Source: Escherichia coli | GTDB taxonomy: Bacteria; Pseudomonadota; Gammaproteobacteria; Enterobacterales; Enterobacteriaceae | DNA length: 64,000 nucleotides | Assembly (NCBI RefSeq): GCF_003334315.1 | Contig: NZ_QOWR01000005.1 | Strand: one strand, 5' to 3' | Shown: positions 6,979 to 56,235 of the stretch, piece after piece | Numbering within the stretch: position 1 is the stretch's first letter | How the letters are laid out: each line of letters begins with the position of its first letter | Program-made: the position numbers and the translations under genes | Notes under the pieces: model-generated | What the model was told of the DNA's origin: nothing | What the model saw: only the letters and a program-made list of their open reading frames with translations | Databases searched by the model: none

Positions 6979-7012
6979 CAGCCCGACGAACTGTTTCGCC
7001 GGGCTGATTTTT
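6979..7012. terminator. probable bidirectional intrinsic terminator for convergent perM and focB
   Basis: Stem cagcccgacgaa/ttcgccgggctg (11/12 bp) with 4-nt loop, T5 on plus strand (7008-7012); U-rich after stem on minus strand too. Confidence 0.65.
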
Positions 7013-7860
7013 CAGGATTCCTGACGTAAATAGATAGCCCGATAACACATACTCACCAGCACTGCACCGCCGATAATATTACCCAGCATCACCGGGAGCA
7101 GATTGGCGGTAATAAAATGGCTTACCGTCAGTGCCGGAAAATTGTCTGCGCTACTGTGCGCCAGTTGCCAGAAGGGGGGAGGGGCGAAATGGCGAATGGC
7201 AATGGCGAACGGAATCACAAACAAATTGGCGATACAGTGCTCAAAGCCACTGGCGACAAACAGGGTGATGGGCAAAATCATGGCGACGATTTTGTCGCAT
7301 AACGAACGCCCGCAATAACTCATCCACAGCGCCAGGCAAACCATCAGATTGCACATAATGCCGAGGCTGACAGATTCAGTAAATGTATGATGCATTTTGC
7401 CCTCGGCGCAGTGTAAAACCGCGACTCCCCACATCGCGTTTTCACTCATCACCAGCCCGGAAAACCAGATTAACAAACTGAAACAGGCAATACCTGCCAG
7501 ATTACCGCAGGCCACCAGAAGTGCGTTAATCAGCCAAGTTCGCCAACTAATAACGCCCCGACTTTTTGCCATCACCGTCATTACCGACGAGGTGAACAGG
7601 CTGGTGCCGCAAACCGCCAGCAAAATAAAGCCGAGTGTAAAGCAAAGGCCGCCCACCAGATGGGTTAATGCCTGTGAAGACGGGGCATCGGCGATAACGG
7701 AAAGGTAAAAAGTAAATCCGATCGCCATAAACACGCCAGCGGACATCGCCATTAAAAAGACCGACACTTTACTGCGGGCAATTTTATGGGCGGCAATCCG
7801 TTCAGCGATTGCCGCTTTTCTGGCGCTCAACTGCAAGTCGAAAGAGAGTTTGTTTCTCAT
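7012..7860 (-). CDS. focB: formate channel (FNT family), hyf-associated
   Basis: 282-codon ORF MRNKLSFDLQLSARKAAIAERIAAHKIARSKVSVFLMAMSAGVFMAIG... Confidence 0.95.
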   Translation of the reverse strand: MRNKLSFDLQLSARKAAIAERIAAHKIARSKVSVFLMAMSAGVFMAIGFTFYLSVIADAPSSQALTHLVGGLCFTLGFILLAVCGTSLFTSSVMTVMAKSRGVISWRTWLINALLVACGNLAGIACFSLLIWFSGLVMSENAMWGVAVLHCAEGKMHHTFTESVSLGIMCNLMVCLALWMSYCGRSLCDKIVAMILPITLFVASGFEHCIANLFVIPFAIAIRHFAPPPFWQLAHSSADNFPALTVSHFITANLLPVMLGNIIGGAVLVSMCYRAIYLRQES

Positions 7861-7881
7861 GCATACTCCTGCAAAAGCAGA

Positions 7882-9894
7882 TTACAACACCTCGCGAACC
7901 GAGATCCCCAGCCGCTGCATTCGTGACAGCAGCGTGGTGCGCTTCATCCCTAATCGCGTCGCTGCGCCACGGGGCCCGGCAACAATGCCATTGGTTTCTC
8001 GCAATACCTGAACAATGCGCTGACGTTCTTCTTCGTCATTCTCTGGCGTCGTCGGGTGCAGTAACTGCGCCATTGAACTGCGAAGCGCTGAATCTTCATT
8101 TAGCGTCGGCAGTAAACGGCTTTGTCGGACATTTAGATGTAAATTCAGACTGTTACCACGAGTCAGCAGTACCGCCCGCTCAATCACGTTTTCCAGCTCG
8201 CGCACGTTGCCCGGCCAATCCCACGACATCAACTGGCGTAGTGCCTCGGTCGGAATGGCGTCAATTGCGCGATTCATATGGCGCGCCATTTTTTGCGTGA
8301 AATGTTTTGCTAAAAGAGGGATATCTTCCGGACGGTCGCGTAGCGGCGGCAATTCCAGTGGGAAGACATTCAGGCGATAAAAGAGATCGCTGCGAAACTG
8401 GCGATCTTCAACCATTTGCCACAAATCACGGTTGGTGGCGGCAATGACTCTGACATTCACCGGGATCGTTCTACTCCCGCCGAGACGCTCAATCTCCCGC
8501 TCCTGCAATACGCGCAGCAGTTTAGGCTGAAGTTCTAACGGCAGATCGCCAATTTCATCGAGAAACAACGTGCCGCCATCGGCAATTTCAAAACGACCAC
8601 GATGGGTATTAATCGCACCAGTAAACGCCCCTTTGTCATGACCGAATAACTCACTTTCCAGAAGACTGGCGGGGATGGCAGCGCAGTTGATTTTGACCAG
8701 CGGCTTGTCGCGTCGCGGGCTAAGTTGATGGATCGCTCTGGCGATCACCTCTTTGCCAGTTCCGGTTTCACCACAAATCAACACCGTACTGTCGCTCTTC
8801 GCCACAATATCTACCTGCTGGAGCAGGTCTTCCATTGCCTGGCTTTGATAGATAATGTCACCGATGCCCAGATTCGAAAGGAGCTGCTCGCTAAGCTGGT
8901 GGTTTTCTTGCTGCAAACTTTCCTGCAAATCGGTCATGCTACGCCAGGCATCGGCATTGCCAACGGCAATAGCGATGCGATCGGCTATGTGTTGTAGTAG
9001 CTGGCAGTTTTCCTCACTAAAGAGAGTGGAAGAGGTATGCGCCAGCAACAATGCACCCGGTGTATGGTTGCCAAAGGTAAGCGGTATAAGGAGCGCAGAT
9101 TCGCAGCCGTTAGATGCAAGTAAGAGTAATAACGGGTCGCGTTGCCAGAGAAACAGATCATCTGCACGGTGCGTCAAGGTCGGTTGTCGGGTTTGTAGCG
9201 TTTGTGTCAGCAATACACTTTCGCCAGGCATACAGCGTGGCAGACACGCACAATGTGAGGCAGAAAGATCGCTGCACCACAGGCTGAACTTCTCGTTCTT
9301 TCGATGATCGCCCAGTACCATACTGACTGAAGCCAGACCGAAAAAATGATGGATCTCACGAGCGACGTCAGCGATCAGATCGTCGAGATCAAGATGTGAC
9401 AGCACTGCATTAGTAATATCAACCAGTACCCGATGATGATCGCGATCTTTCTCCAGCAAACGCAGCGCCACCTGCTGTTCTTCATCATTGAGCCATGATT
9501 GCAGAACCGGGGTGATTATCCGCGCCAGCCAGTTAAACAGTGTGCAATCCTGGGAAGTAAAACGACTGCCGTGGGTGCGAATAAAGCGTAGCTCCGCCAT
9601 TCCACTACTGCCGAGAAGGACGGCGTGACGCGAATAATCGACCATCTCGCCCTGATACTCTGTTGTTGCCGTCACATCGCTGCCATCATCATGGTAGCGG
9701 TAATAGAAGTTGCTTTTGAGAACATGCAGTTCAATAAGTTGTACCGGGCTGAACGGCGGCGGCAGCGGGATGAAGGCGCGTAATAAAGACGCCTTGCCGT
9801 GTTTCTGTGCTAACCGCTCCGCGAGCATTCCGTTTACCGCTTCAATTGTTATTCCTTGTGGCGGGGCAAACATCGCCTCGTCTGACATAGCCAT
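7882..9894 (-). CDS. hyfR: sigma-54-dependent transcriptional activator of hyf (GAF, AAA+ and HTH domains)
   Basis: [13 protein letters not shown]...; Walker [15 protein letters not shown] sigma-54 interaction motif, C-terminal HTH; start taken at second Met (670 aa), 9897 also possible. Confidence 0.93.
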
Positions 9895-9923
9895 CAACAG
9901 TCCTTATTAATGAGAAATCCTTC

Positions 9924-10337
9924 TCACGCAATTTTTCTGGCCATCAGATAGATGGCCGGTTCCTGCACAATTTCATCCAACAGATGAATGAATTGAATGC
10001 TACGCGCCTGCCACACAGACGTCGCGTCATCCGCCAGTGGCGCGAATGCCCGGGTCAACAGGGCGGTGTGGCTGGCGTCAATAACAATCTCACCAAAAGT
10101 CATCACCCCCAGCATCTTACGTCGGGCTTGCTCCTCTTCGACCAGTGCAAGCCAATCTTCGTATTCCGTCAGTGGGCAGCGGAAGGCGACATTCAGACAA
10201 TCAATCACGCCAACGTGATGGCCGATAGCTAGCGAGTAATACATTACCTGAGAGCTGTGTTCCGGCATCTCGTCGCTACTGGCGACAAACTTTTTTCGCA
10301 GCGTCCAGAAAACAATTTCCCCGCACTCTTCAGTCAT
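9924..10337 (-). CDS. hyfJ: hydrogenase-4 maturation/assembly protein (HycH-like)
   Basis: 137 codons from ATG 10337: [41 protein letters not shown]...; track ORF 10400 trimmed. Confidence 0.9.
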
Positions 10338-11088
10338 GTAACCCCCGGAGTACGCGAAAGAGTTGCTGAACGATACTATTGAGACGTGGATCGTCGGCAT
10401 CGCGCAACCAGGTGTTAACCCGATTTCCTGTAGGATCGTCGCTTAAATGGCGCAGGAGCCGATCGCAAATTTCTCGCCCCTGACGATAGCCCGCCAGCCG
10501 CCGCGCTTCTCGCTCAATGGCGATACGCTGTGATGGCGGGATCTGCGGCCACAACGGTTGCATAGTCACCCCGGTGGGATCGCGATAATCCACAGCGTGA
10601 ATCTTCTGTTGCAGCAAACCGAGCGCCACGGCGAAACCGTGAATGGTGGCGGCCGGTGTTGGCGGGCAGCCGGGGATCCAAACATCAATGGGGACAATGG
10701 TGTCGCTACCGCCCCAGACGCTGTAGAGATCGTGGAAAATACCGCCGCCGACACCGCACGCGCCGTAGGAAACACAAATTTTATGATCGGGGGCAGACTC
10801 ATACGCCCGAAGTGCAGGCATACGCATCGCCCGGGTGACTGCGCCAGTAAATAACAAAATATCGGCGTGACGCGGTGATGAAACAACCTTAATGCCAAAA
10901 CGTTCTGCGTCGAATACTGGTGTAATGGCAGCAAAAATTTCGATTTCACAGGCGTTGCAGCCGCCGCAATCGATGCGATAAACGTAAGCCGAGCGACGGA
11001 TATCCTGTAGCAAATGCCGCTTCATCTTTTGCGTTTGCTCGTCCAGCGTGATGGGCTGGCTGACATATTGTGTAAGCACTGGACTCAT
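10330..11088 (-). CDS. hyfI: hydrogenase-4 small subunit (NuoB-like, Fe-S)
   Basis: 252-codon ORF with [10 protein letters not shown] and GCPP motifs; overlaps hyfJ start by 8 nt. Confidence 0.94.
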
Positions 11089-11630
11089 AGCTGCTCCTTA
11101 GCCACCAGCAGTACATCTGTATCGTCGTTGATCAGCGTCGCGCGTTGTTTGCATTCCGGGCAGACGCTCGCTTGCGCCCACAACATTTCGCGGTTTTGTG
11201 GCGCATTTTGTTGCTGTGCTAACAATTCAGCAGCCAGTGCGATGGTTTTTTGCGGGGCAAACGGGCGTTCGCAACGGCTGCAACGTTGTAGATGGAACGT
11301 CGCGCGGGTATAGAGATCGGCTTTATTGGTGACGGTCAGTTCAAAGTTATTGGTAAGCTGGATGGCTCTGGTCGGGCACACTTCTTCACAACGTCCGCAG
11401 TAAATACAACGCCCCAGATAGAGCTGCCAGGTGCGCGAATTTTGCTGGTCGTCGGTCTGGATAGTCAGCGCATTTGCCGGACAAGCACAGGCGCAGGCAC
11501 CGCAGGCAATACATTGGCTGGGCATCAGGTCCGGTTTTCCGCGAAAGCCAGGGCTGACCTCCAGTGGCGCGAAGGGATATTTCACCGTCGCGGTTCCGGC
11601 GCGCATAATAGTTTTCAGTAACTTCAGCAT
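11085..11630 (-). CDS. hyfH: hydrogenase-4 ferredoxin-like subunit (two 4Fe-4S motifs)
   Basis: 181-codon ORF with [12 protein letters not shown] and [12 protein letters not shown] cysteine clusters; ATGA overlap with hyfI. Confidence 0.94.
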
Positions 11631-11639
11631 CTTCTGTCC

Positions 11640-13307
11640 TTACTTCAGCGGCGAACGGTTACGATCAATGCCGTAGCGTTCGATCTCTTTATACGGCACG
11701 GTTTTTGACTGGCGCTTGCGCACATCTACCAGCGTCACACGGTCGGTACAGGAGTAGCAGGGATCAAGGCTACCGATAATCAGCGGTGCGTCAGAAACGG
11801 TATTGCCGCGCAGCATGTAACGCAACACCGGCCAGTTGGCGTAGGTGGCGGCACGGCAGCGCCAGCGGAACAATTTTTGGTTATCACCGAGCATGCTCCA
11901 GTGCACGTCTTCACCGCGTGGCGCTTCAACAAAGCCCAGCGCGAATGCGTGAGGTTTATAGCTAAAGCCTTCGGTCAGCAGTGGGGTATCCGGCATGTTG
12001 TCGAGGGCAAATTCCAGCATTGCCAGCGAATCAAACGTCTCTTTGACACGGACCATCACGCGGGAGAAAACATCGCCGCCGGTAAAGGTAAACAGTGTTT
12101 TTGGAATATTGCCGTAGTCGGCGTAGGGGTGATCAAAGCGCAAATCACGGGCGATTTGTCGGTCGAGAATGCCAATGCCCTGAGTGCGTTGTTCCATATT
12201 CGGCGTAGCAAGCAGCATCTCTACCAGCTCCGACACGTCGGCGCGCATCTCGCGCACCAGTTTCAGCGTTTGCAGACGTTGCTCTTTGAGAATATCGCGG
12301 CGAACACCACCAATCAGATTCAGACCGTAGGTTTTACGCGACCCGATCAGCAATTCCGCCATCGTCATCGACTTTTCCCGCACGCGGAAAAATTGCATAA
12401 AGCCGGTATCAAAACCAACGAAATGGCAGGAGAGGCCAAGGTTAAGCAAATGACTGTGTAGCCGTTCGACTTCCAGCAGAATCGAGCGAATAGTATGTGC
12501 TCGTTGCGGCACCTCAATCCCCAGTGCATTTTCAACCGAATTGGTATAGGCCACACTGTGGGCAAAACCGCAAATCCCACACACGCGGTCCGATAAGAAG
12601 GTCACTTCGTTGTAGCCCATCCGCGTTTCTGCCAGTTTCTCCATGCCGCGATGGACATAAAACAGGCGGTAATCAGCATCGACAATTTGCTCGCCATCCA
12701 CAAACAAGCGGAAGTGACCCGGTTCATCGGAGGTGATATGCAGCGGGCCGACAGAGATCACCCGCGCATCGCTGTTGCCCTCATTGATAAACGGATACGT
12801 TTCGGAATCAGTCGTCGGTTCAGGGCGCAGTCGATAATCCATCGCATCTTTGCGCAGCGGATGCATATCTTCCGGCCAGTCATCGGGCAACACCAGGCGA
12901 CGCTGATCCGGCAGGCCAACCGGAATCAGCCCGTACATATCGCGAATTTCTCGCTCGCCCCAGACCGCGGCAGGGACGCGCGGTGTGACTGACGGAAACT
13001 CCCGACTGTCGGCATCGACCAGCGCCTTCACCACAATCCAGCATTTTTCGGCCCCTTCCATTGAAAGGGCATAATAAACCGCGTAATGACCGTTAAGTGT
13101 CCGCTCGTCGTTGCCAAACAGGACCGGAAGCCAGCCATCATGTTGATAATAAAGATACTGTACAACGTCAGGCAGCAGATTGATTTTCACCGTAATGGTG
13201 ACCTGTTCAGGCGTTTGTCGCTCTTCATCCAGCACCGCGCCGGGGAACTGCGTTTTCAGGGCGGCGAGAATCGCTTCGCCACGATTTGACGATGAATTAA
13301 CGTTCAC
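11640..13307 (-). CDS. hyfG: hydrogenase-4 large catalytic subunit (NiFe, NuoCD-like)
   Basis: 555 codons from GTG 13307: (M)[24 protein letters not shown]...; C-terminal DPCYSCTDR nickel-binding motif; track ORF 13352 trimmed. Confidence 0.92.
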
Positions 13308-14877
13308 TGTGTTTCTCCGAAACAGATGCGGTGCCTGAAGGCAAAAAATCATGCCAGGTGCTACGTTGTGCAGGCAGATCGTGCGTCCCTGAGAGGACTA
13401 TAGTGGAAGCGCCCGCCAGGATCCTGATGACAGGTTGTGGAATATGCGTTCCCATCGCCAGCATCATGACCAGCAGAATCACCATTGGCGAGGTGGTCAA
13501 CCAGCCGAGATCACCCCGGTTAACGGCCTGCGGCGGTTTCGCCATTAACACCCGCGCAGCCATCCGTACCAGGCCCGCCAGCACCAGCGTTAACAGCAAT
13601 AACAGCAGGACGATAATCAGCAGGTGATTACGTGCCAGTCCGGCGGTAATGGTCATAAATTCGCTAAGAAAAATGTTGAAGGGCGGCATCCCTGCCAGCG
13701 CCAGCGCACCGCCGCCAAACAGCACGGCGGTAAATGGCATGATTTTGAGCATCCCACAGACGACGTTGAGATCGCGCGTGCCGTACTTGAGCAGTACATT
13801 GCCGGAACCGCAGAACAGCAGCGTTTTTGCCAGACTGTGGTTTAAGATGTGCAGCAGCGCGGCAAAAATTCCCAGCGGCCCGCCAATGCCTAGCTCCACC
13901 GCGACCAGCCCCATGTTCTCCACGCTGGAGTACGCCAGCAGACGCTTAATGTCCCGCTGTACCAGAATGAAAAATGCCGCCACGGCAACCGACAACATGC
14001 CGAAGATGAGCAACAACCGGTTGGGGAAATCGCTGCCGATGGCTTGGCAAATAATGATGTAATAGCGAATCAGCACCAACAGCGCGCAGTTCAGCACTAC
14101 GGCGGAGAGCAGGGCGCTGACCGGACTCGGCGCTTCACTGTGAGCATCCGGCAGCCAGGCGTGCATGGGAAATAGCCCGGTTTTGGTACCAAAGTCAATT
14201 AGCAAAAACACAAAGGCCAACAGCATTAATGTTGGGTCAAGCAAGGACGATTGCTTAAGAACCTCGCTCCAGAATATCGCCATTTCTGCCTGCGGCATAA
14301 CGCTGGCGGTGTTGGCGTATACCAGCACGGTACCGAACAGACCAAAAGCGACACCAACAGTACAAATAATGATGTACTTCCATGCAGCTTCCAGCGATGA
14401 ACGCTGACCGTAAATGCCTACCAGAAACGCCGAGCTTAAGGTGGTGGCTTCGATCGCCGCCCACATCACAATCAGGTTATTGCTGGTAACAACCAGCAGC
14501 ATGGTGAACAAAAACAGATGGAAGAAACCGTAGTAATCGCACAGCGTAACGGGTGAAAGCTCGCCGTGTGCCACTTCATGACGCATGTAGCCAATCGAGT
14601 AAATACCGGTGAGAAAGCCAATCACACCAAGAATGGCGAGGAACAAACCGCCCAGACCATCAATATGAAGCCACAGTCCCGCAGCGAATATTTCTCCTGC
14701 ATCAGCGGCAGTTTGGACCACCCAGAGTGCCAGAATCAGCAGCAGTGTGATCCCTAAGCTATGTAATACGGTCACCGTGCGAGTCGCAGAAAGTCTCCGT
14801 TTCCGGCAGGCAAAACAGAGCAGCGAAAAAAGCAGCGGCGTGAGCAGGAGTAAAGCGAACATCACAGAATAACTCAT
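13297..14877 (-). CDS. hyfF: hydrogenase-4 membrane subunit (NuoL/M/N antiporter-like)
   Basis: 526-codon [33 protein letters not shown]..., polytopic. Confidence 0.94.
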
Positions 14878-14881
14878 CTCA

Positions 14882-15532
14882 TTATCCCTTCAGCGCGGTC
14901 AAGTTGTTCACGTCCAGCGTGCCGTGGGTACGCCATATTTTTCTTGCCAGTAACACCATCACAATGACGGCGAAGATGGCGTCGGTAGCGATACCTATTT
15001 CCACCAGTTCCGGTGCTCGCCAGGCAAGAAGCGCCAGCACCAGATGGGAGCCGTTTTCCATCAGGCAGTAACCAAAAATTTGCCGCAGGATATTGCGCTG
15101 GCTGACAATGCACAGCAGGCCAAGCAGAAAATGACCTAACGCTACCGCCAGCGCCGGTTTCAGCCCGGTAGCCATCGGTAGCTTCACGGGCTGAACGACA
15201 AATGCGCAAAGCAGGACAATTAACGCCGCGAGCAGTGCCATCATTGCCGGACCGAATAACGCTTTTTCCGGGATGTTCTGGGGAATATTTCGTGCAGCGT
15301 AAGTCATGATTAACGGTACCAGCAGCACTTTGGTGATAAAGGCGCTGGCGGACCAGATCAGCAGTTGCTCTGCGGCGAACAGGCACGAGAGGGTGGCGAA
15401 AATAGACACCAGCACCAGTGACTGGCAGGCGTAAAATCCGCATGACAGGCGATAGCTTTTGACGCTAATCACAAACAGTGATGTCAGCATCATCAGTCCC
15501 GCCAGATTATTTACGATCATAGAACCGGTCAT
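14882..15532 (-). CDS. hyfE: hydrogenase-4 membrane subunit
   Basis: 216-codon [33 protein letters not shown]... Confidence 0.93.
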
Positions 15533-15543
15533 TCATCATCTCC

Positions 15544-16982
15544 TTACTGCAACCAGGTCGCGGCGATTACGCTGGAAATCAGCGACATCACAATCAGTAC
15601 AATCAACACCAGGCGCATTGACCCTGGCAGCGGTGCGGCATCGGCGACGGCCTCGCTCGGTTTGCCAGGCACGACGCGACCAAACCAGCGAATAAACCAG
15701 GCGAAACTGGCGACCGATTCAATCATCAGCAGAATCATGGCGGGCAGCAGGATCCAGTACTCCACTGACAACGCAAAACCGGCAGCAAACAGCGGGAATT
15801 TACTGAAGAAGCCGTTGAACGGCGGCACGCCGGTAATTGCCAGCGCTGCCACGCAGAAACCCACGCCAGGCAACGGCAGGGTGTGCAATACGCCACGCAG
15901 ACGCGGCAACAAGCGCGTGCCGCAGCTGTAACTCAGCGCACCTGCTACAAGGAAAAACAGGCTTTTAGCGAACGCGTGGTTGACGATGTAGGCGATGCTA
16001 CCCTCCAGCGCCAGCCGCGAGCCGAAGATGGAGAGCGACAAGCCGAAGAACATCCAGCCAAGTTGAGTGATGGTCGACCAGGCCAGCAACCGCTTCATAT
16101 CCTGCTGTGGCAAATACATCAGAAATCCATAAAGAATGGTGACCAGGGCCATGACCATGCCAACGCCGCCAATCACATGCGGGATATTGCCGCCGTCGAT
16201 AATGGCGCGGGCAAAAATGTAAACGCCCACTTTCACCATCGATGCGGCGTGGAGATAGGCGCTGATCGGTGTTGGCGCTTCCATTGCGTCCGGTAGCCAC
16301 GCTTGCATCGGTAGCTGGGCCGATTTCCCCCACGCGGCAAACAGGATGCCGCCATAAACCAGATAACGTGCGTCGCCGTGTAACTCGCTCATCGCGCTAA
16401 GCGCAAACGTTCCGGTCTGCAAAAACAGCGTGGCGGCGGCAAGATACAACCCCAACGAGCCGATATGAGTGATAAGTAACGCTTTTAGTGCTGAACGCTG
16501 CGCTTTATCGCTCTGGTAATAACTGATCAACGCCCAGGAGCAGCCGCCCGTAATTTCAAAAAACAACAACTGACCGAGCAGCGTCGAGGAGAGTACCAGT
16601 CCCGCCATCGCGCCGATAAACACCAGCAAAAATGCGTAATAACGATTCGTGCCGTTATGCGGGTGTTCGCGATTTTTATCCGTCAGATAACCCGTGGAGT
16701 AGATCGTGACCAGCAAACCGAGAAACACCACCACAAACAGAATCAGCGTACTCACGCGATCAATGACCAGGCCAAACAATGCCACATCCCCCACGTTGAC
16801 CAACGTCAACGTGACGGCAACTTTATCGGCCTGATAAAACGCGGAGATCAGCGACAACATGCACAGCGTGGTCAGTGCGGCGAACAAAACCCCCATTCGG
16901 CGGCCCGACGTTGTGGCGAAAACGAAACGACCAGTGCGCCGATAAAAGGCAGCATTAACGTCGTCAGAGCAAGATTTTCCAT
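15544..16982 (-). pseudogene. hyfD: hydrogenase-4 membrane subunit HyfD, interrupted by a frameshift in a G5/C5 run (16890-16894)
   Basis: ATG 16982 gives MENLALTTLMLPFIGALVVSFSPQRRAAEWG then stops at 16874-16872; the 450-codon body (15544-16896) is in the adjacent frame; joining with one extra G gives 479 aa. Confidence 0.8.
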
Positions 16983-16998
16983 ATTCCGTCAGTGCTCC

Positions 16999-17945
16999 TT
17001 ACAGACCGGTTAACCAGAAGACCCATGCAAGCGCAGCAAGGCTGAAGCCAAGCCAGGTCACATGGTGAATGAGTAAAAAACGCCCGCATGCCAGCGTGTT
17101 TTCTGCGATTGAAGCCAGTACAAAAATCAGCAAAACCTTGAGCAGCGTAACGACAAGTGAAGTCAGCAGGCAGGTGAGAGAAAGTTCTTGCGCGCGCCCA
17201 AAGGGCAGAAACAGGGCCACAAACAGTGCTGCCATCACGACCTGTTTCAGCCCCAGCCCCCATTTCGCCAACGCCAGCCCGGCACCGGAATATTCGGTCA
17301 GCGGGCCTTCCTGTAATTCCTGTTCTGCTTCAGCAACATCAAAGGGAATTTTTCCCATCTCTATGAAGCAGGCAAAACCACAGGCCAGTAACGCCAGTAC
17401 GGTGGTTAGCGGCGAGTTCCAGCCCATCGCCAGCGTATTGCTGATCATCTCGATATGCGTGGAATCCGCTATCAGCGCCAATACCAGCAGTGAGAGAATG
17501 AGCATGGGTTCGACCAGAATGCCGAGCGTCAACTCGCGACTGGCACCGACTCCCGCAAACGGGCTTCCGGTATCCAGCCCTGAAAGAGCAAAGAAAAAAC
17601 GAAACAGGGCAAGAAGATAGATAAGGGTGATCAGATCGCCGCCGCCCGCAAAAGGGAAACGGTAATAAACAGTGGTAGGGCCATCGCCAGCACCAGCATG
17701 CTGCTGATTAATACCCACGGCATCAGGCGGAACATCAGACCTGAAGATATAGGCGCAACTTCCTGGCGTTTAAACAGTTTGTGGATATCGCGATAATCCT
17801 GCCAGATCTCCGGCCCGCGGCGGGAGTGCATACGCGCGCGTATCTGCCGGGAAATACCCGTAAAAAGTGGGGTTAGCATCAGCAGAATCACGGCCTGTGC
17901 TAACGCAAAAATGACCAGATATCCGTCGCAAAGAGTTTGTCTCAT
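16999..17945 (-). pseudogene. hyfC: hydrogenase-4 membrane subunit HyfC (NuoH-like), interrupted by a frameshift in a G3/C3 run (17654-17656)
   Basis: ATG 17945 gives MRQTLCDGYLVIFALAQ...PLFITVS then LLRAAAI-stop (17631); remainder (...PFAGGGDLITLIYLL... to 16999) is in the adjacent frame; joined length 315 aa. Confidence 0.8.
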
Positions 17946-17955
17946 GGTGATTTCC

Positions 17956-19974
17956 TTAGACGGCAATAGCGATTAGCAGCACAACCAGTGCGGCGACCAC
18001 ATACAGGCAATAGAGACGAAAGTCGCCGCTTTGCAGATGCTGTATTTCTTTGGCCAGCCGTTGGGTGGCGCTCACGATGGGGCGGATCACCCGCTCATCC
18101 CAGAAGGGTTCTGTGCTCTGAGCCCTGGCGGTGACGTGCGCAAGACCTTTATTTAGCCTCAGCGTAGGGTCGAGCTGTTGTCGTAGACGAAATAGCGCAG
18201 AAAAGACCACACGCAGCGGCTGCATCACGCCATTGCCTGACGGGGCCATCGCATTTTCCCAGCTGTAGCCGCATGCCCAGGCATCTCCTGTGCGACGAAA
18301 CGCTGCGCGGCGCGAACGACACCACAGCCAGTAAAGGCCAGGCAGCAAAGGCATCGCCAGTAGTAACAGCAACAGTAATGAAGGAGTGACCCGTGTATGA
18401 AACGTGCCGGGTACAAGTGCTATTCCGCTGGCGACAGTGACGGGAGGGGTATCGGTAAACGCATGGGCAATATGCATTATCTTCGGTGCCAGCCAACTGG
18501 CACTAAGCGCAATTAATACGCAGAGTGCCGCGAGCAGTAGCATGGCGACGATCATCGTATTTGGCACTTCCTGTGCCTCTTCAGCGTGTGTACTGCGCGG
18601 CGCACCACAGAAAGTAATACCGTACATTTTTACGAAGCACATTACTGCCAGCCCACCAGTGACTGCCAGCATTACCATAGCAATAGGACCCGCAAGTTGT
18701 AGCGCTACGGCTTCCACACGACTTAGTGAGAACAGCGACTGCCAGGTGTACCATTCGCTGATAAAATCATTCAGCGGAGGAAGGGCTGATATCGCCAGGC
18801 AACCAATCAGGCATGCTGCGGCTGTCCACGGCATCCGTTTCGCCAGTGCCCCCATTTTTTCCATGTCGTGGGTATGCAAACGCGAAATAATCGCGCCCGC
18901 GCCGAGAAATAGCAGCCCTTTGAACAGCGCATGGTTGAGCAGATGAAACAGTGCGCCGAGCAGTCCAACCACGGTGAGCAGCGGGTCGTGCAGTGACAGA
19001 CCGACCATCGCCACACCGACCGCCAGCAAAATAATGCCGACGTTTTCGACGGTACTCCAGGCCAGTAGCCGTTTGATATCCTGTTCCGCCAGCGCATACA
19101 GCACGCCCAGGAGCGCGGAGATTGCGCCGATCGCCATCACCAGAATGCCCCACCACAGCGGCAAACCCGTTTGCGCCAGCAGATCCATCGCCACTTTCAG
19201 GATGCCGAAAATACCGATTTTGACCATTACGCCAGACATCAACGCTGAAGCGTGCGATGGTGCGGCAGGGTGAGCGCGCGGCAACCAGCTGTGCAACGGC
19301 ATCATCCCGGCTTTCGCGCCAAAACCGAAAAAGGCCAGCAGGAACACCGCCGACGCCAGCCCCGGAGAAAGTGAAAGCGTGCGGAAACTGGCAAAATCGA
19401 GGCTGCCGCTTTCGCGCCCCATCAGCAAGAAGGCGATCATTATCAGCACCGATCCGGCGTGGGCGATAAAAAAGTAGAGCATGCCAGCGTTGATCGACGT
19501 TTTATCCTGCCTGGCAATGACCAGAAACCAGGAAGACAGCGACATCATTTCAAACAGCACGATGAACCAAAAAGCGTTGTCCATCACCAGCAGGGCAACC
19601 ATCGATGCGATGAAAAGATTCATAAAGAAGCCCATCGCCGCCGCGCCTTTGCCCTCGTATTCGCGCATATAAGTCAATGAATAGAGCGAACAAACCACCA
19701 CCAGCAAGGAGATAACCAGCACCATAAATGCCGAGAGGCTATCCATTCGCAGGGTTAAATCGGCAAAGTCAAAAGGGGTGGCAAAATGGGCGACTAAAGT
19801 TACACCAGCATGTAATTGCGTAATTCCGCTGATGATGCCAATCACGCCGCCCACCAGCGATGTGATGCTGGAAAGCTTAATAGCCAGTCTGTCCAGACCG
19901 AGTAAAAACAGCGAAGCCAGACTGGCAAACAGATAGAGGATCAGCGACCAGGTTAATAATTGCAGGGCATCCAT
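17956..19974 (-). CDS. hyfB: hydrogenase-4 membrane subunit (NuoL/MrpA antiporter-like)
   Basis: 672-codon ORF MDALQLLTWSLILYLFASLASLFLLGLDRL... Confidence 0.95.
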   Translation of the reverse strand: MDALQLLTWSLILYLFASLASLFLLGLDRLAIKLSSITSLVGGVIGIISGITQLHAGVTLVAHFATPFDFADLTLRMDSLSAFMVLVISLLVVVCSLYSLTYMREYEGKGAAAMGFFMNLFIASMVALLVMDNAFWFIVLFEMMSLSSWFLVIARQDKTSINAGMLYFFIAHAGSVLIMIAFLLMGRESGSLDFASFRTLSLSPGLASAVFLLAFFGFGAKAGMMPLHSWLPRAHPAAPSHASALMSGVMVKIGIFGILKVAMDLLAQTGLPLWWGILVMAIGAISALLGVLYALAEQDIKRLLAWSTVENVGIILLAVGVAMVGLSLHDPLLTVVGLLGALFHLLNHALFKGLLFLGAGAIISRLHTHDMEKMGALAKRMPWTAAACLIGCLAISALPPLNDFISEWYTWQSLFSLSRVEAVALQLAGPIAMVMLAVTGGLAVMCFVKMYGITFCGAPRSTHAEEAQEVPNTMIVAMLLLAALCVLIALSASWLAPKIMHIAHAFTDTPPVTVASGIALVPGTFHTRVTPSLLLLLLLAMPLLPGLYWLWCRSRRAAFRRTGDAWACGYSWENAMAPSGNGVMQPLRVVFSALFRLRQQLDPTLRLNKGLAHVTARAQSTEPFWDERVIRPIVSATQRLAKEIQHLQSGDFRLYCLYVVAALVVLLIAIAV

Positions 19975-20591
19975 TAGCGTTGCTCCTGAGTGAGGGAAAG
20001 GGGATCCTCCCCGCCATTGGCAAACCAGCTTGCGGCAAGGCGCTGTTTTTCTTTCATCTGACGTTGCAGGCTATCGTCGGTGATCAGCCGTAACGCCTGA
20101 TTCGGGCAAGCGCGAACGCAGGCCGGACCTTCTGGCAAGAAATCACACAGGTCGCATTTCACCGCGACGGTCTGGACACCCGGTTCCCAGCGCAGCAACG
20201 CATGTTGGGGCAGCACGTTTTCTTCGCCGTTTTTGAGTGAGCCTTCAGCCTGAAAAACATATTGCGCATGGGCATTCACCGGACGGCTTCCTGAAGCGCT
20301 GATTGCGCCAAATGGGCAGACCACGGCGCAAAGCTTGCAGCCAATACAGAGGCTTTCGTTGAGTTGGATCGCATCATCCCTCTGAGAGATGGCATTGACC
20401 GGGCAGACCTGCAGGCAAGGGGCTTCCTCACAGTGATGACACACGACAGGGGCAGTGATTGTTGACGTCTTCGCCAGGGCCAGGCGCGGGTGTTGCTGTA
20501 AACCTTGCGTTTTATGCACGTCCGAACAGGCAGCGAGACAGGTATTACATCCTGTACACCACAGTGGTTCGGCCACCACAAAGCGGTTCAT
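19974..20591 (-). CDS. hyfA: hydrogenase-4 4Fe-4S ferredoxin subunit
   Basis: 205 codons from ATG 20591: MNRFVVAEPLWCTGCNTCLAACSDVH...; four CxxCxxCxxxCP-type clusters; upstream ATG 20630 lies upstream of the predicted sigma-54 start site. Confidence 0.92.
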   Translation of the reverse strand: MNRFVVAEPLWCTGCNTCLAACSDVHKTQGLQQHPRLALAKTSTITAPVVCHHCEEAPCLQVCPVNAISQRDDAIQLNESLCIGCKLCAVVCPFGAISASGSRPVNAHAQYVFQAEGSLKNGEENVLPQHALLRWEPGVQTVAVKCDLCDFLPEGPACVRACPNQALRLITDDSLQRQMKEKQRLAASWFANGGEDPLSLTQEQR

Positions 20592-40117: not shown

Positions 40118-40179
40118 GCATCCGGCAATCAGCATCCGGCAATCAGCATCCGGCAATCAGCATCCGGCGATCACCATCA
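40118..40179. repeat. 14-bp tandem repeat (about 4.4 copies), REP-derived
   Basis: gcatccggcaatca x3, then gcatccggcgatca, then partial ccatca; last copy overlaps the tktB stop codon (40177-40179). Confidence 0.85.
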
Positions 40180-46359: not shown

Positions 46360-46839
46360 ATGAAACGAATTGCGTTTGTGGGTACCGTCGGGGCAGGGAA
46401 AACAACGTTATTTAATGCGTTGCAGGGGAATTATACCCTCGCCAGAAAAACACAGGTCGTGGAATTTAATGATAAGGGCGATATTGATACGCCGGGTGAA
46501 TATTTTAGCCATCCCCGCTGGTATCACGCCTTAATTACCACGCTACAGGATGTGGACATGCTGATCTATGTCCACGGCGCGAATGACCCGGAAAGTCGGT
46601 TGCCTGCCGGGTTGCTGGATATTGGCGTCAGCAAACGGCAAATCGCCGTTATCAGTAAAACGGACATGCCGGATGCTGACGTCGCCGCAACGCGAAAGTT
46701 ATTGCTTGAGACGGGCTTCGAAGAGCCGATTTTCGAGCTAAACAGCCACGACCCGCAAAGCGTGCAGCAACTGGTGGATTATCTGGCATCTCTCACCAAA
46801 CAGGAGGAAGCAGGTGAAAAAACTCATCACAGCGAATGA
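46360..46839 (+). CDS. eutP: EutP acetate-kinase-type GTPase/ATPase
   Basis: 159-codon ORF MKRIAFVGTVGAGKTTLFNALQG... (P-loop GAGKTT). Confidence 0.92.
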   Translation: MKRIAFVGTVGAGKTTLFNALQGNYTLARKTQVVEFNDKGDIDTPGEYFSHPRWYHALITTLQDVDMLIYVHGANDPESRLPAGLLDIGVSKRQIAVISKTDMPDADVAATRKLLLETGFEEPIFELNSHDPQSVQQLVDYLASLTKQEEAGEKTHHSE

Positions 46840-47503
46840 TATTCGTGAAGCACACGCGCGCGGCGAACAGGCAATGTCCGTGGTTCTGCGCGCCAGCATT
46901 ATTACCCCGGAAGCCCGTGAAGTGGCAGATCTGTTGGGTTTTACCATCACCGAATGCGAGGAATCGACACCAGCAACGGTATCTGTGCCCGTAGAGAAAA
47001 CCGAAAGCCAGCGTATCCGCGAAACCATTATCGCCCAGCTACCGGAAGGCCAGTTTACCGAAAGCCTGGTCGCGCAGCTGATGGAAAAAGTGATGAAGGA
47101 AAAACAGTCGCTGGAGCAGGGCGCAATGCAGCCGAGCTTCAAATCGGTGACCGGCAAAGGCGGCATCAAAGTGATTGATGGCAGTAGCGTCAAGTTTGGT
47201 CGTTTCGATGGCGCACAGCCACACTGCGTCGGATTAACGGATTTGGTTACCGGAGACGACGGCAGCAGCATGGCCGCCGGTTTTATGCAGTGGGACAACG
47301 CCTTCTTCCCGTGGACCCTGAACTACGACGAAATCGACATGGTGCTGGAAGGGGAGCTGCATGTTCGCCACGAAGGCGAAACCATGATCGCCAAAGCAGG
47401 CGACGTGATGTTTATCCCGAAAGGCTCCAGCATCGAATTTGGTACGACATCCAGCGTGAAATTCCTGTATGTCGCCTGGCCAGCTAACTGGCAATCCCTA
47501 TGA
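46814..47503 (+). CDS. eutQ: EutQ (cupin-fold acetate kinase)
   Basis: 229-codon ORF from GTG 46814 (MKKLITANDIREAHARGEQAMSVVLRASIITPEAREV...), overlapping eutP 3' end by 26 nt; exact start uncertain. Confidence 0.88.
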   Translation: MKKLITANDIREAHARGEQAMSVVLRASIITPEAREVADLLGFTITECEESTPATVSVPVEKTESQRIRETIIAQLPEGQFTESLVAQLMEKVMKEKQSLEQGAMQPSFKSVTGKGGIKVIDGSSVKFGRFDGAQPHCVGLTDLVTGDDGSSMAAGFMQWDNAFFPWTLNYDEIDMVLEGELHVRHEGETMIAKAGDVMFIPKGSSIEFGTTSSVKFLYVAWPANWQSL

Positions 47504-54824: not shown

Positions 54825-56224
54825 ACACTCGCCAGCTATTGAGCGTCGGTATCGATATCGGCACCACCACCACCCAGGTGATTTTCTCCCGGCTGGAGCT
54901 GGTTAACCGTGCGGCGGTGTCGCAGGTGCCGCGCTACGAATTCATTAAACGCGAAATTAGCTGGCAAAGTCCGGTGTTCTTTACCCCTGTCGATAAACAG
55001 GGCGGTTTAAAAGAAGCGGAACTGAAAACCTTAATACTCGAGCAATATCATGCTGCGGGTATTGAGCCGGAAAGCGTTGATTCTGGTGCCATCATCATCA
55101 CCGGTGAAAGCGCGAAAACCCGCAATGCTCGCCCGGCGGTGATGGCGCTCTCTCAGTCGCTGGGCGATTTTGTCGTTGCCAGCGCCGGGCCGCACCTCGA
55201 ATCCGTGATCGCCGGTCACGGAGCCGGGGCACAAACCCTTTCTGAACAACGGCTGTGTCGGGTACTGAATATCGACATCGGCGGTGGCACCGCGAACTAC
55301 GCCCTGTTCGATGCCGGAAAAATCAGCGGCACTGCCTGCCTCAACGTCGGTGGTCGCCTGCTGGAAACCGACAGCCACGGGCGCGTGGTTTACGCTCATA
55401 AACCGGGGCAGATGATTGTGGATGAGTGCTTCGGTGCAGGCACTGACGCCCGTTCGCTGACCGGCGCGCAGCTGGTGCAGGTTACCCGGCGGATGGCGGC
55501 GCTGATTGTCGAAGTGATTGACGGAACGCTTTCGCCGCTCGCGCAGGCATTGATGCAAACCGGTTTGCTGCCCGCAGGTGTTACGCCCGAAATCATTACG
55601 CTTTCTGGAGGCGTGGGCGAATGTTATCGCCACCAGCCCGCCGACCCGTTCTGTTTTGCCGATATTGGCCCACTTCTGGCAACGGCGCTGCATGACCATC
55701 CGCGCCTGCGTGAGATGAATGTGCAGTTTCTGGCGCAAACCGTACGCGCCACGGTGATTGGCGCGGGTGCACATACCCTTTCGCTCTCTGGCAGCACAAT
55801 CTGGCTGGAGGGCGTACAACTGCCGCTGCGCAATTTGCCGGTGGCGATCCCGATTGATGAAACGGATCTGGTGAGTGCCTGGCAACAGGCGCTGCTTCAG
55901 CTGGATCTTGATCCCAAAACTGACGCGTACGTGCTGGCGCTTCCCGCCTCGCTGCCTGTGCGTTACGCCGCGGTACTGACGGTCATCAACGCGCTGGTCG
56001 ATTTCGTCGCGCGTTTTCCGAATCCGCATCCCCTGCTGGTGGTGGCCGGGCAGGACTTTGGTAAAGCTCTGGGCATGTTGTTGCGCCCACAGCTACAACA
56101 ACTCCCGTTGGCAGTCATTGACGAAGTGATTGTCCGCGCGGGGGACTATATCGACATTGGTACGCCTCTTTTTGGCGGATCGGTTGTGCCGGTGACGGTG
56201 AAATCACTCGCATTTCCTTCCTGA
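54821..56224 (+). CDS. eutA: ethanolamine ammonia-lyase reactivase EutA
   Basis: 467-codon ORF MNTRQLLSVGIDIGTTTTQVIFSRLELVNRAAVSQVPRYEFIKREISW...; GTGA overlap with eutH. Confidence 0.95.
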   Translation: MNTRQLLSVGIDIGTTTTQVIFSRLELVNRAAVSQVPRYEFIKREISWQSPVFFTPVDKQGGLKEAELKTLILEQYHAAGIEPESVDSGAIIITGESAKTRNARPAVMALSQSLGDFVVASAGPHLESVIAGHGAGAQTLSEQRLCRVLNIDIGGGTANYALFDAGKISGTACLNVGGRLLETDSHGRVVYAHKPGQMIVDECFGAGTDARSLTGAQLVQVTRRMAALIVEVIDGTLSPLAQALMQTGLLPAGVTPEIITLSGGVGECYRHQPADPFCFADIGPLLATALHDHPRLREMNVQFLAQTVRATVIGAGAHTLSLSGSTIWLEGVQLPLRNLPVAIPIDETDLVSAWQQALLQLDLDPKTDAYVLALPASLPVRYAAVLTVINALVDFVARFPNPHPLLVVAGQDFGKALGMLLRPQLQQLPLAVIDEVIVRAGDYIDIGTPLFGGSVVPVTVKSLAFPS

Positions 56225-56235
56225 GGGAACGACTT

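Follow-up and report, generated by a model that had tools for sequence, protein, structure and literature searches.

The window analysed here, 64,000 nt of an Escherichia coli genome (contig NZ_QOWR01000005.1 of assembly GCF_003334315.1), is collinear, in reverse orientation, with approximately 2,550,900-2,621,800 of E. coli K-12 MG1655, except that the prophage CPZ-55 is absent. On its minus strand it carries the hydrogenase 4 operon hyfABCDEFGHIJR-focB (7012-20591), with all twelve genes in K-12 order, ten of them full length and uninterrupted. The remaining two are the adjacent genes hyfC and hyfD. The hyfD locus (15544-16982, minus strand), which encodes membrane subunit D, an antiporter-like protein, has hyfC and hyfE as its neighbours just as in K-12 and measures 1439 nt, against 1440 nt (479 aa) for hyfD of K-12 MG1655 (b2484), a NuoL/M/N-type antiporter-like subunit of the same position, operon order and Pfam domains. 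The two genes share 98.8% DNA identity, and their alignment contains a single gap.

That gap lies in a run of five G (16890-16894, minus strand; C5 on the plus strand), which corresponds to nt 89-94 of hyfD, where K-12 MG1655, O157:H7, ST648 and others have six; the same 1-nt gap separates the window from K-12, O157:H7, ST648 and KOL-1. In the window the hyfD frame is lost at codon 31 and a stop follows at codon 37, so that the open reading frame list holds two pieces. The 5′ fragment (MENLALTTLMLPFIGALVVSFSPQRRAAEWGFCSPH; ATG at 16982, TGA at 16874-16872, minus strand) is 36 codons long and consists of the authentic HyfD codons 1-30, which cover transmembrane helix 1 and a basic loop, followed by six out-of-frame codons. 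The 3′ body, a 450-codon frame in the neighbouring register (15544-16896, minus strand), begins at a fortuitous ATG within 'AATGGGGG' at the junction. When one G was inserted into the run, the two frames joined into 479 aa with zero internal stops, and L10M was the sole difference from K-12 HyfD (478/479). The positions given for these features in the original prediction were all accurate, and its reading of them, namely that a one-base homopolymer shortfall splits a gene whose K-12 product has 479 residues and that one additional G reunites it, agrees with these alignments.

By hydropathy, helix 1 of HyfD spans residues ~3-22 and helix 2 starts from ~31, which places the frameshift between them, in a short loop of basic character (SPQRRAAEW). 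A Pfam scan of K-12 HyfD located Proton_antipo_N (PF00662) at residues 70-103 and Proton_antipo_M (PF00361) at 133-413; both domains are downstream of the frameshift and are retained by the 450-codon frame, whose protein is identical to K-12 HyfD over residues 32-479. The gene thus keeps its domains and lacks an uninterrupted frame of ~479 codons, and, compared with intact orthologues, it has both an indel whose length is not divisible by three and a premature stop. Since the single hyfD frame is interrupted, the locus is, judged from its sequence, a pseudogene and not a functional member of the HyfD family.

The gene directly upstream has suffered a second lesion of the same kind. The hyfC locus (16999-17945, minus strand; 947 nt, 948 nt in K-12), which encodes the NuoH/HycD-like core membrane subunit, is likewise split in two pieces in the open reading frame list. 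Alignment showed a run of three C at 17654-17656 (minus strand) in place of the four of K-12, and the shifted frame ends at a premature TGA (17631-17633, minus strand) after 104 codons, that is, at codon 105. Addition of one C to the window sequence restored a stop-free HyfC of 315 aa. The expectation that all the remaining genes would have their usual length, making the hyfD lesion a specific one, therefore did not hold. The window hyfC also carries a private C-to-T substitution at 17088 (minus strand), giving R287C, which was absent from 17/17 compared genomes and is the sole mismatch to the best database matches; the exact 239-aa hyfC fragment of the window, including R287C, was found on 34 public contigs.

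Outside these two genes the window is well preserved. When 57 K-12 genes were mapped and translated, 54 were full length and uninterrupted, eutQ was shorter in frame, and hyfC and hyfD were disrupted, so that frame-breaking indels or premature stops occur in hyfC and hyfD only among the 57 genes shared with K-12, and both frame-breaking changes of the window fall in neighbouring genes of the same operon. This agreed with a list of every indel in the ~63 kb aligned to K-12, all other indels being intergenic or, in eutQ, amounting to 12 nt in total. As there is no other coding frameshift in ~63 kb, the window assembly is not riddled with homopolymer errors.

Several other differences from K-12 were recorded along the window. 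The eutQ gene (46814-47503, minus strand) is a divergent allele with 93.3% identity to K-12, 12 nt (4 codons) shorter in frame with a gap near 46992-46996, and the rest of the eut operon is 96-100% identical to K-12. The genes eutB and eutA lie adjacent, 11 nt apart (~56207-56235), where K-12 has the 6.8-kb cryptic prophage CPZ-55 between them, and in the absence of CPZ-55 the eut operon is therefore uninterrupted in the window. An insertion of 28 nt relative to K-12, just beyond the tktB stop (40146-40173), resembles additional tandem copies of a 'TGATTGCCGGATGC' unit belonging to an intergenic repeat. Along the hyf operon (7012-20591), identity to K-12 is 98.1-98.8% from hyfA to hyfD and 99.4-100% from hyfE to focB, a step suggestive of recombination with a breakpoint close to the junction of hyfD and hyfE.

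The distribution of both run lengths was determined in a collection of 5,426 complete E. coli genomes with 31-nt queries centred on each run, for which the 28-nt exact seed of megablast must span the run. Five G in hyfD were found in 998 genomes and six in 2,846, while three C in hyfC were found in 306 genomes and four in 3,297. A 501-nt query matched the hyfC-hyfD region in 4,293/5,426 genomes and left 1,133/5,426 without a match; about a fifth of sequenced E. coli thus appear, by this query, to lack this part of the hyf operon entirely. The 24-kb hyf region of the window was near-identical to many independent complete genomes. The original prediction had held that the frameshift would be in doubt if other genomes showed the same five-base run and a 450-residue product; such sequences are abundant, the exact 450-aa product being present on at least 1000 contigs of the protein collection, where it is named, for instance, 'hydrogenase 4 subunit HyfD', and what they show is a common allele, not an intact gene.

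The original prediction had allowed for either a real lesion or an assembly error, and these counts bear on whether the strain truly has six G in hyfD and four C in hyfC, the missing bases being base-calling or assembly errors. Both lesions are 1-nt homopolymer shortfalls, a typical error mode of some sequencing platforms, and some assemblies may miscount the run, given five genomes that combine six G with a SNP otherwise linked to five G (among them O178:H19 and SZQ1, on sub-haplotypes of five-G genomes; see below). However, five G and three C recur in 998 and 306 complete genomes, respectively, including independently sequenced reference strains, five G is near-perfectly linked to the nearby SNP, the window shows zero other coding frameshifts in the ~63 kb aligned to K-12, and the exact 450-aa product recurs on the contigs counted above. 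Error as the source of the two lesions has almost no probability left, and the allele counts, the whole-window indel comparison and the gene-by-gene check effectively refute it. Because 998 genomes carry five G in tight linkage to the flanking SNP, the lesion is, on these comparisons, heritable and not assembly-specific, as expected of a real inherited allele.

The linked SNP lies 19 nt downstream of the run. In a hyfC-hyfD alignment of 18 sequences it was A in every five-G sequence except that of E686, and G in most six-G sequences. Linkage was then scored across the collection with 31-mers in which the run and the SNP 19 nt away fall inside every possible seed. The main haplotypes were five G with A (~997 genomes) and six G with G (~2,841), and the 6 exceptions among roughly 3,850 genomes comprised one genome with five G and G and five genomes with six G and A. 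This near-complete linkage indicates that the five-G allele arose essentially once and was then inherited or moved by recombination. The single five-G genome with G is E686, in which the allele stands on a divergent, ST648-like haplotype and is, as its flanking sequence indicates, an independent occurrence. Among the five genomes with six G and A, O178:H19 and SZQ1 have sub-haplotypes otherwise identical to those of the five-G genomes 120899 and M6, respectively; as hyfD of both is still broken by a second lesion, their six G look like either neutral reversions or differences in base calling. An intact hyfD is present in FCI56 and TUM13936, that of FCI56 closely resembling the window's, and 2017.17.01CC is K-12-like, A having arisen separately.

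These exceptions are also what can be said for the view that hyfD is phase-variable, the G run acting as a contingency tract by which the gene is frequently turned on or off, with E686 representing at least one independent change in run length and a few six-G genomes standing on otherwise five-G haplotypes. With 5-6 bases, the run is short for a tract that switches by strand slippage, and frequent switching would erase the linkage between run and SNP, whereas the flanking SNP predicts run length with only the 6 exceptions given above. Phase variation is accordingly disfavoured to the point of being scarcely credible, and recurrent mutation or phase variation was rejected as the linkage is almost complete. 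As for the order of the two lesions, 40 genomes with three C in hyfC were sampled, 10 of which could be checked for the hyfD run; all 10 had five G and 0 had six. Because these cross-checked genomes all have five G and the hyfC allele is the rarer (306 against 998 genomes), the data suggest that the hyfD lesion is the older one and that hyfC was disrupted afterwards, in a sub-lineage.

Two well-known strains share both lesions. ATCC 8739 and BL21(DE3) carry the same five G and three C, and RefSeq labels hyfC and hyfD of both as 'frameshifted'. ATCC 8739 is identical to the window over 171 nt around the hyfD run and is among the best matches of the 501-nt query, and BL21(DE3) differs from the window by 20 SNPs and zero gaps over 5.2 kb aligned. 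Each of the latter two has a change of its own: BL21(DE3) a CAG-to-TAG substitution at the last hyfD codon, and the window its private R287C in hyfC. The hyfC and hyfD lesions are thus already on record in RefSeq annotation; full-text literature searches found no discussion of hyfC or hyfD frameshifts of B-type strains.

Whether the split gene could still yield a working protein was considered next. Two routes can be envisaged, a -1 slip of tRNA-Gly that gives wild-type HyfD, and a split protein in which the 36-aa peptide and the 450-aa body act together. A -1 slip, in which GGG re-pairs with GGG and GUU follows, would reproduce the wild-type E-W-G-V-L-F exactly, an in-frame ATG is present at the junction, the protein downstream is 100% identical to K-12, and some pipelines deposit the 450-codon frame as a protein. 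However, a canonical heptamer for -1 slippage (X XXY YYZ) is missing at the junction, where the codons of the upstream frame are UGG GGG UUU UGU. The 111 nt from the run onward show no stimulatory RNA structure, with a minimum free energy of -34.8 kcal/mol, compared with a mean of -34.5 kcal/mol for shuffled sequence (z = -0.08). The internal ATG of the 450-codon frame has no Shine-Dalgarno sequence, its duplex with the anti-Shine-Dalgarno sequence reaching -2.5 kcal/mol versus -8.4 at the true hyfD start and -9.2 at that of hyfE, and a scan for internal promoters and terminators returned counts not above those of shuffled sequence. In addition, further disruptive hyfD lesions are stacked in other five-G genomes, and the core anchor gene hyfC is broken in the window too, at a non-slippery site. 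That the allele is not null is therefore highly improbable; with neither heptamer, downstream structure nor Shine-Dalgarno sequence, programmed frameshifting and re-initiation were rejected. Very low-level leakiness may occur if tRNA-Gly in rare cases slips by -1 within the G run. Because hyfC, the core membrane anchor, is also broken, a functional hydrogenase 4 in this strain is very unlikely from its gene content.

The frame-restored hyfD of the window differs from K-12 by 15 synonymous and 1 nonsynonymous substitutions, nearly all of which predate the frameshift, and the 450-codon body shows no visible decay of its own. Most simply, the frameshift would be recent relative to the divergence of the haplotypes; the undecayed body also fits continued selection on it.

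Other natural null alleles of hyfD are independent of this one in the same gene and species, and differ from it in position and type of mutation; some are stacked on five G, and none is present in the window. One of them, a 208-nt deletion (hyfD nt 758-965) flanked by GCG microhomology, was found in 847 complete genomes on both five-G and six-G backgrounds, which implies recombination within hyfD. Among five-G strains, O121:H19 combines the 208-nt deletion with a 1-nt deletion in hyfD and a frameshifted hyfB, 120899 has the 208-nt deletion, and M6 has a 1-nt deletion at hyfD nt 434 together with a frameshifted hyfB. In O139:H1, hyfD is interrupted by an internal stop (a nonsense codon). Annotation of hyfB as frameshifted was noted in five fetched genomes. 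For an estimate of the overlap between the two common alleles, the unnamed annotation 'hydrogenase 4 subunit D' served as a proxy for the 208-nt deletion, as it was present in 5/5 genomes with the deletion and 0/11 without; about 25/60 sampled five-G genomes had it. On this estimate, around one in three hyf-bearing genomes (roughly 1,430) has hyfD broken by five G, the 208-nt deletion or both. The extra and different lesions in other five-G genomes, together with the 208-nt deletion, the O139:H1 stop and the absences of the region, support decay of the operon.

The same repeated and varied losses could reflect selection for inactivation of the distal HyfDEF membrane module, for example through relief of a membrane-protein cost or through more output from an FHL-1-like core, in which case the five-G allele would convert FHL-2 towards such a core. 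The repeated hits on hyfD (five G in 998 genomes, the 208-nt deletion in 847, the nt 434 deletion and the nonsense codon), and the estimate that about a third of hyf-bearing genomes have lost it, are in line with this idea, as is the finding that in Pectobacterium a hyfDEF deletion kept H2 production and raised HyfG (PMC7384014). However, hyfC of the core is broken in the lineage of the window and hyfB is frameshifted in several others, so that the core enzyme would be destroyed as well, 1,133 genomes lack the region altogether, and a general relaxation of selection accounts for all lesions more simply. Adaptive loss is hence considered improbable, though less so than the other alternatives above.

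Taken together, these observations are best explained by a real hyfD allele that has lost its function, is passed on vertically, arose by loss of a single G and belongs to a neutral decay of the operon, a reading to which we assign a probability of about 0.93, the loss of function being deduced from the missing Shine-Dalgarno sequence, the loss of helix 1 and the further lesions in relatives. Slippage during replication would be the most plausible way in which the six-G run (hyfD nt 89-94) lost one base. With the shift in the loop between helices 1 and 2, translation from the true start would end after 36 codons, and the remaining 450 codons, which have neither a ribosome-binding site nor helix 1, would most likely not be made in useful amounts. 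From what was probably a single origin, the allele would have spread by descent and recombination to about a quarter of hyf-bearing E. coli, and the 1-nt deletion in hyfC would have followed in a sub-lineage that includes the window, E. coli B/BL21 and ATCC 8739. With hyfC and hyfD both broken, the strain would be unable to assemble hydrogenase 4 (formate hydrogenlyase-2). The proposed decay would be neutral, in keeping with the poor native expression of hyf in E. coli and its lack of an accessory gene in this species, both of which have been described (PMC7384014). In Pectobacterium atrosepticum, the hyfDEF deletion caused no loss of H2, in contrast to deletion of the whole membrane arm, which lowered H2, and HyfG levels rose when hyfDEF was deleted (PMC7384014). 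By analogy, these results fit weak selection on the hyf operon in E. coli.

The importance of the finding is limited, as it is an ordinary inherited pseudogenisation of a dispensable operon that is already annotated, and it reveals no new mechanism. For database users, it means that 450-aa 'HyfD' entries are truncated pseudogene products. Frameshifts in two neighbouring membrane-subunit genes would leave this strain without hydrogenase 4, as they would E. coli B/BL21, ATCC 8739 and several hundred further isolates, a point of practical relevance where such strains are used in the study or engineering of hydrogenase 4/FHL-2 or of hydrogen production. At the population level, the allele is further support for regarding E. 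coli hyf as dispensable and in decay.
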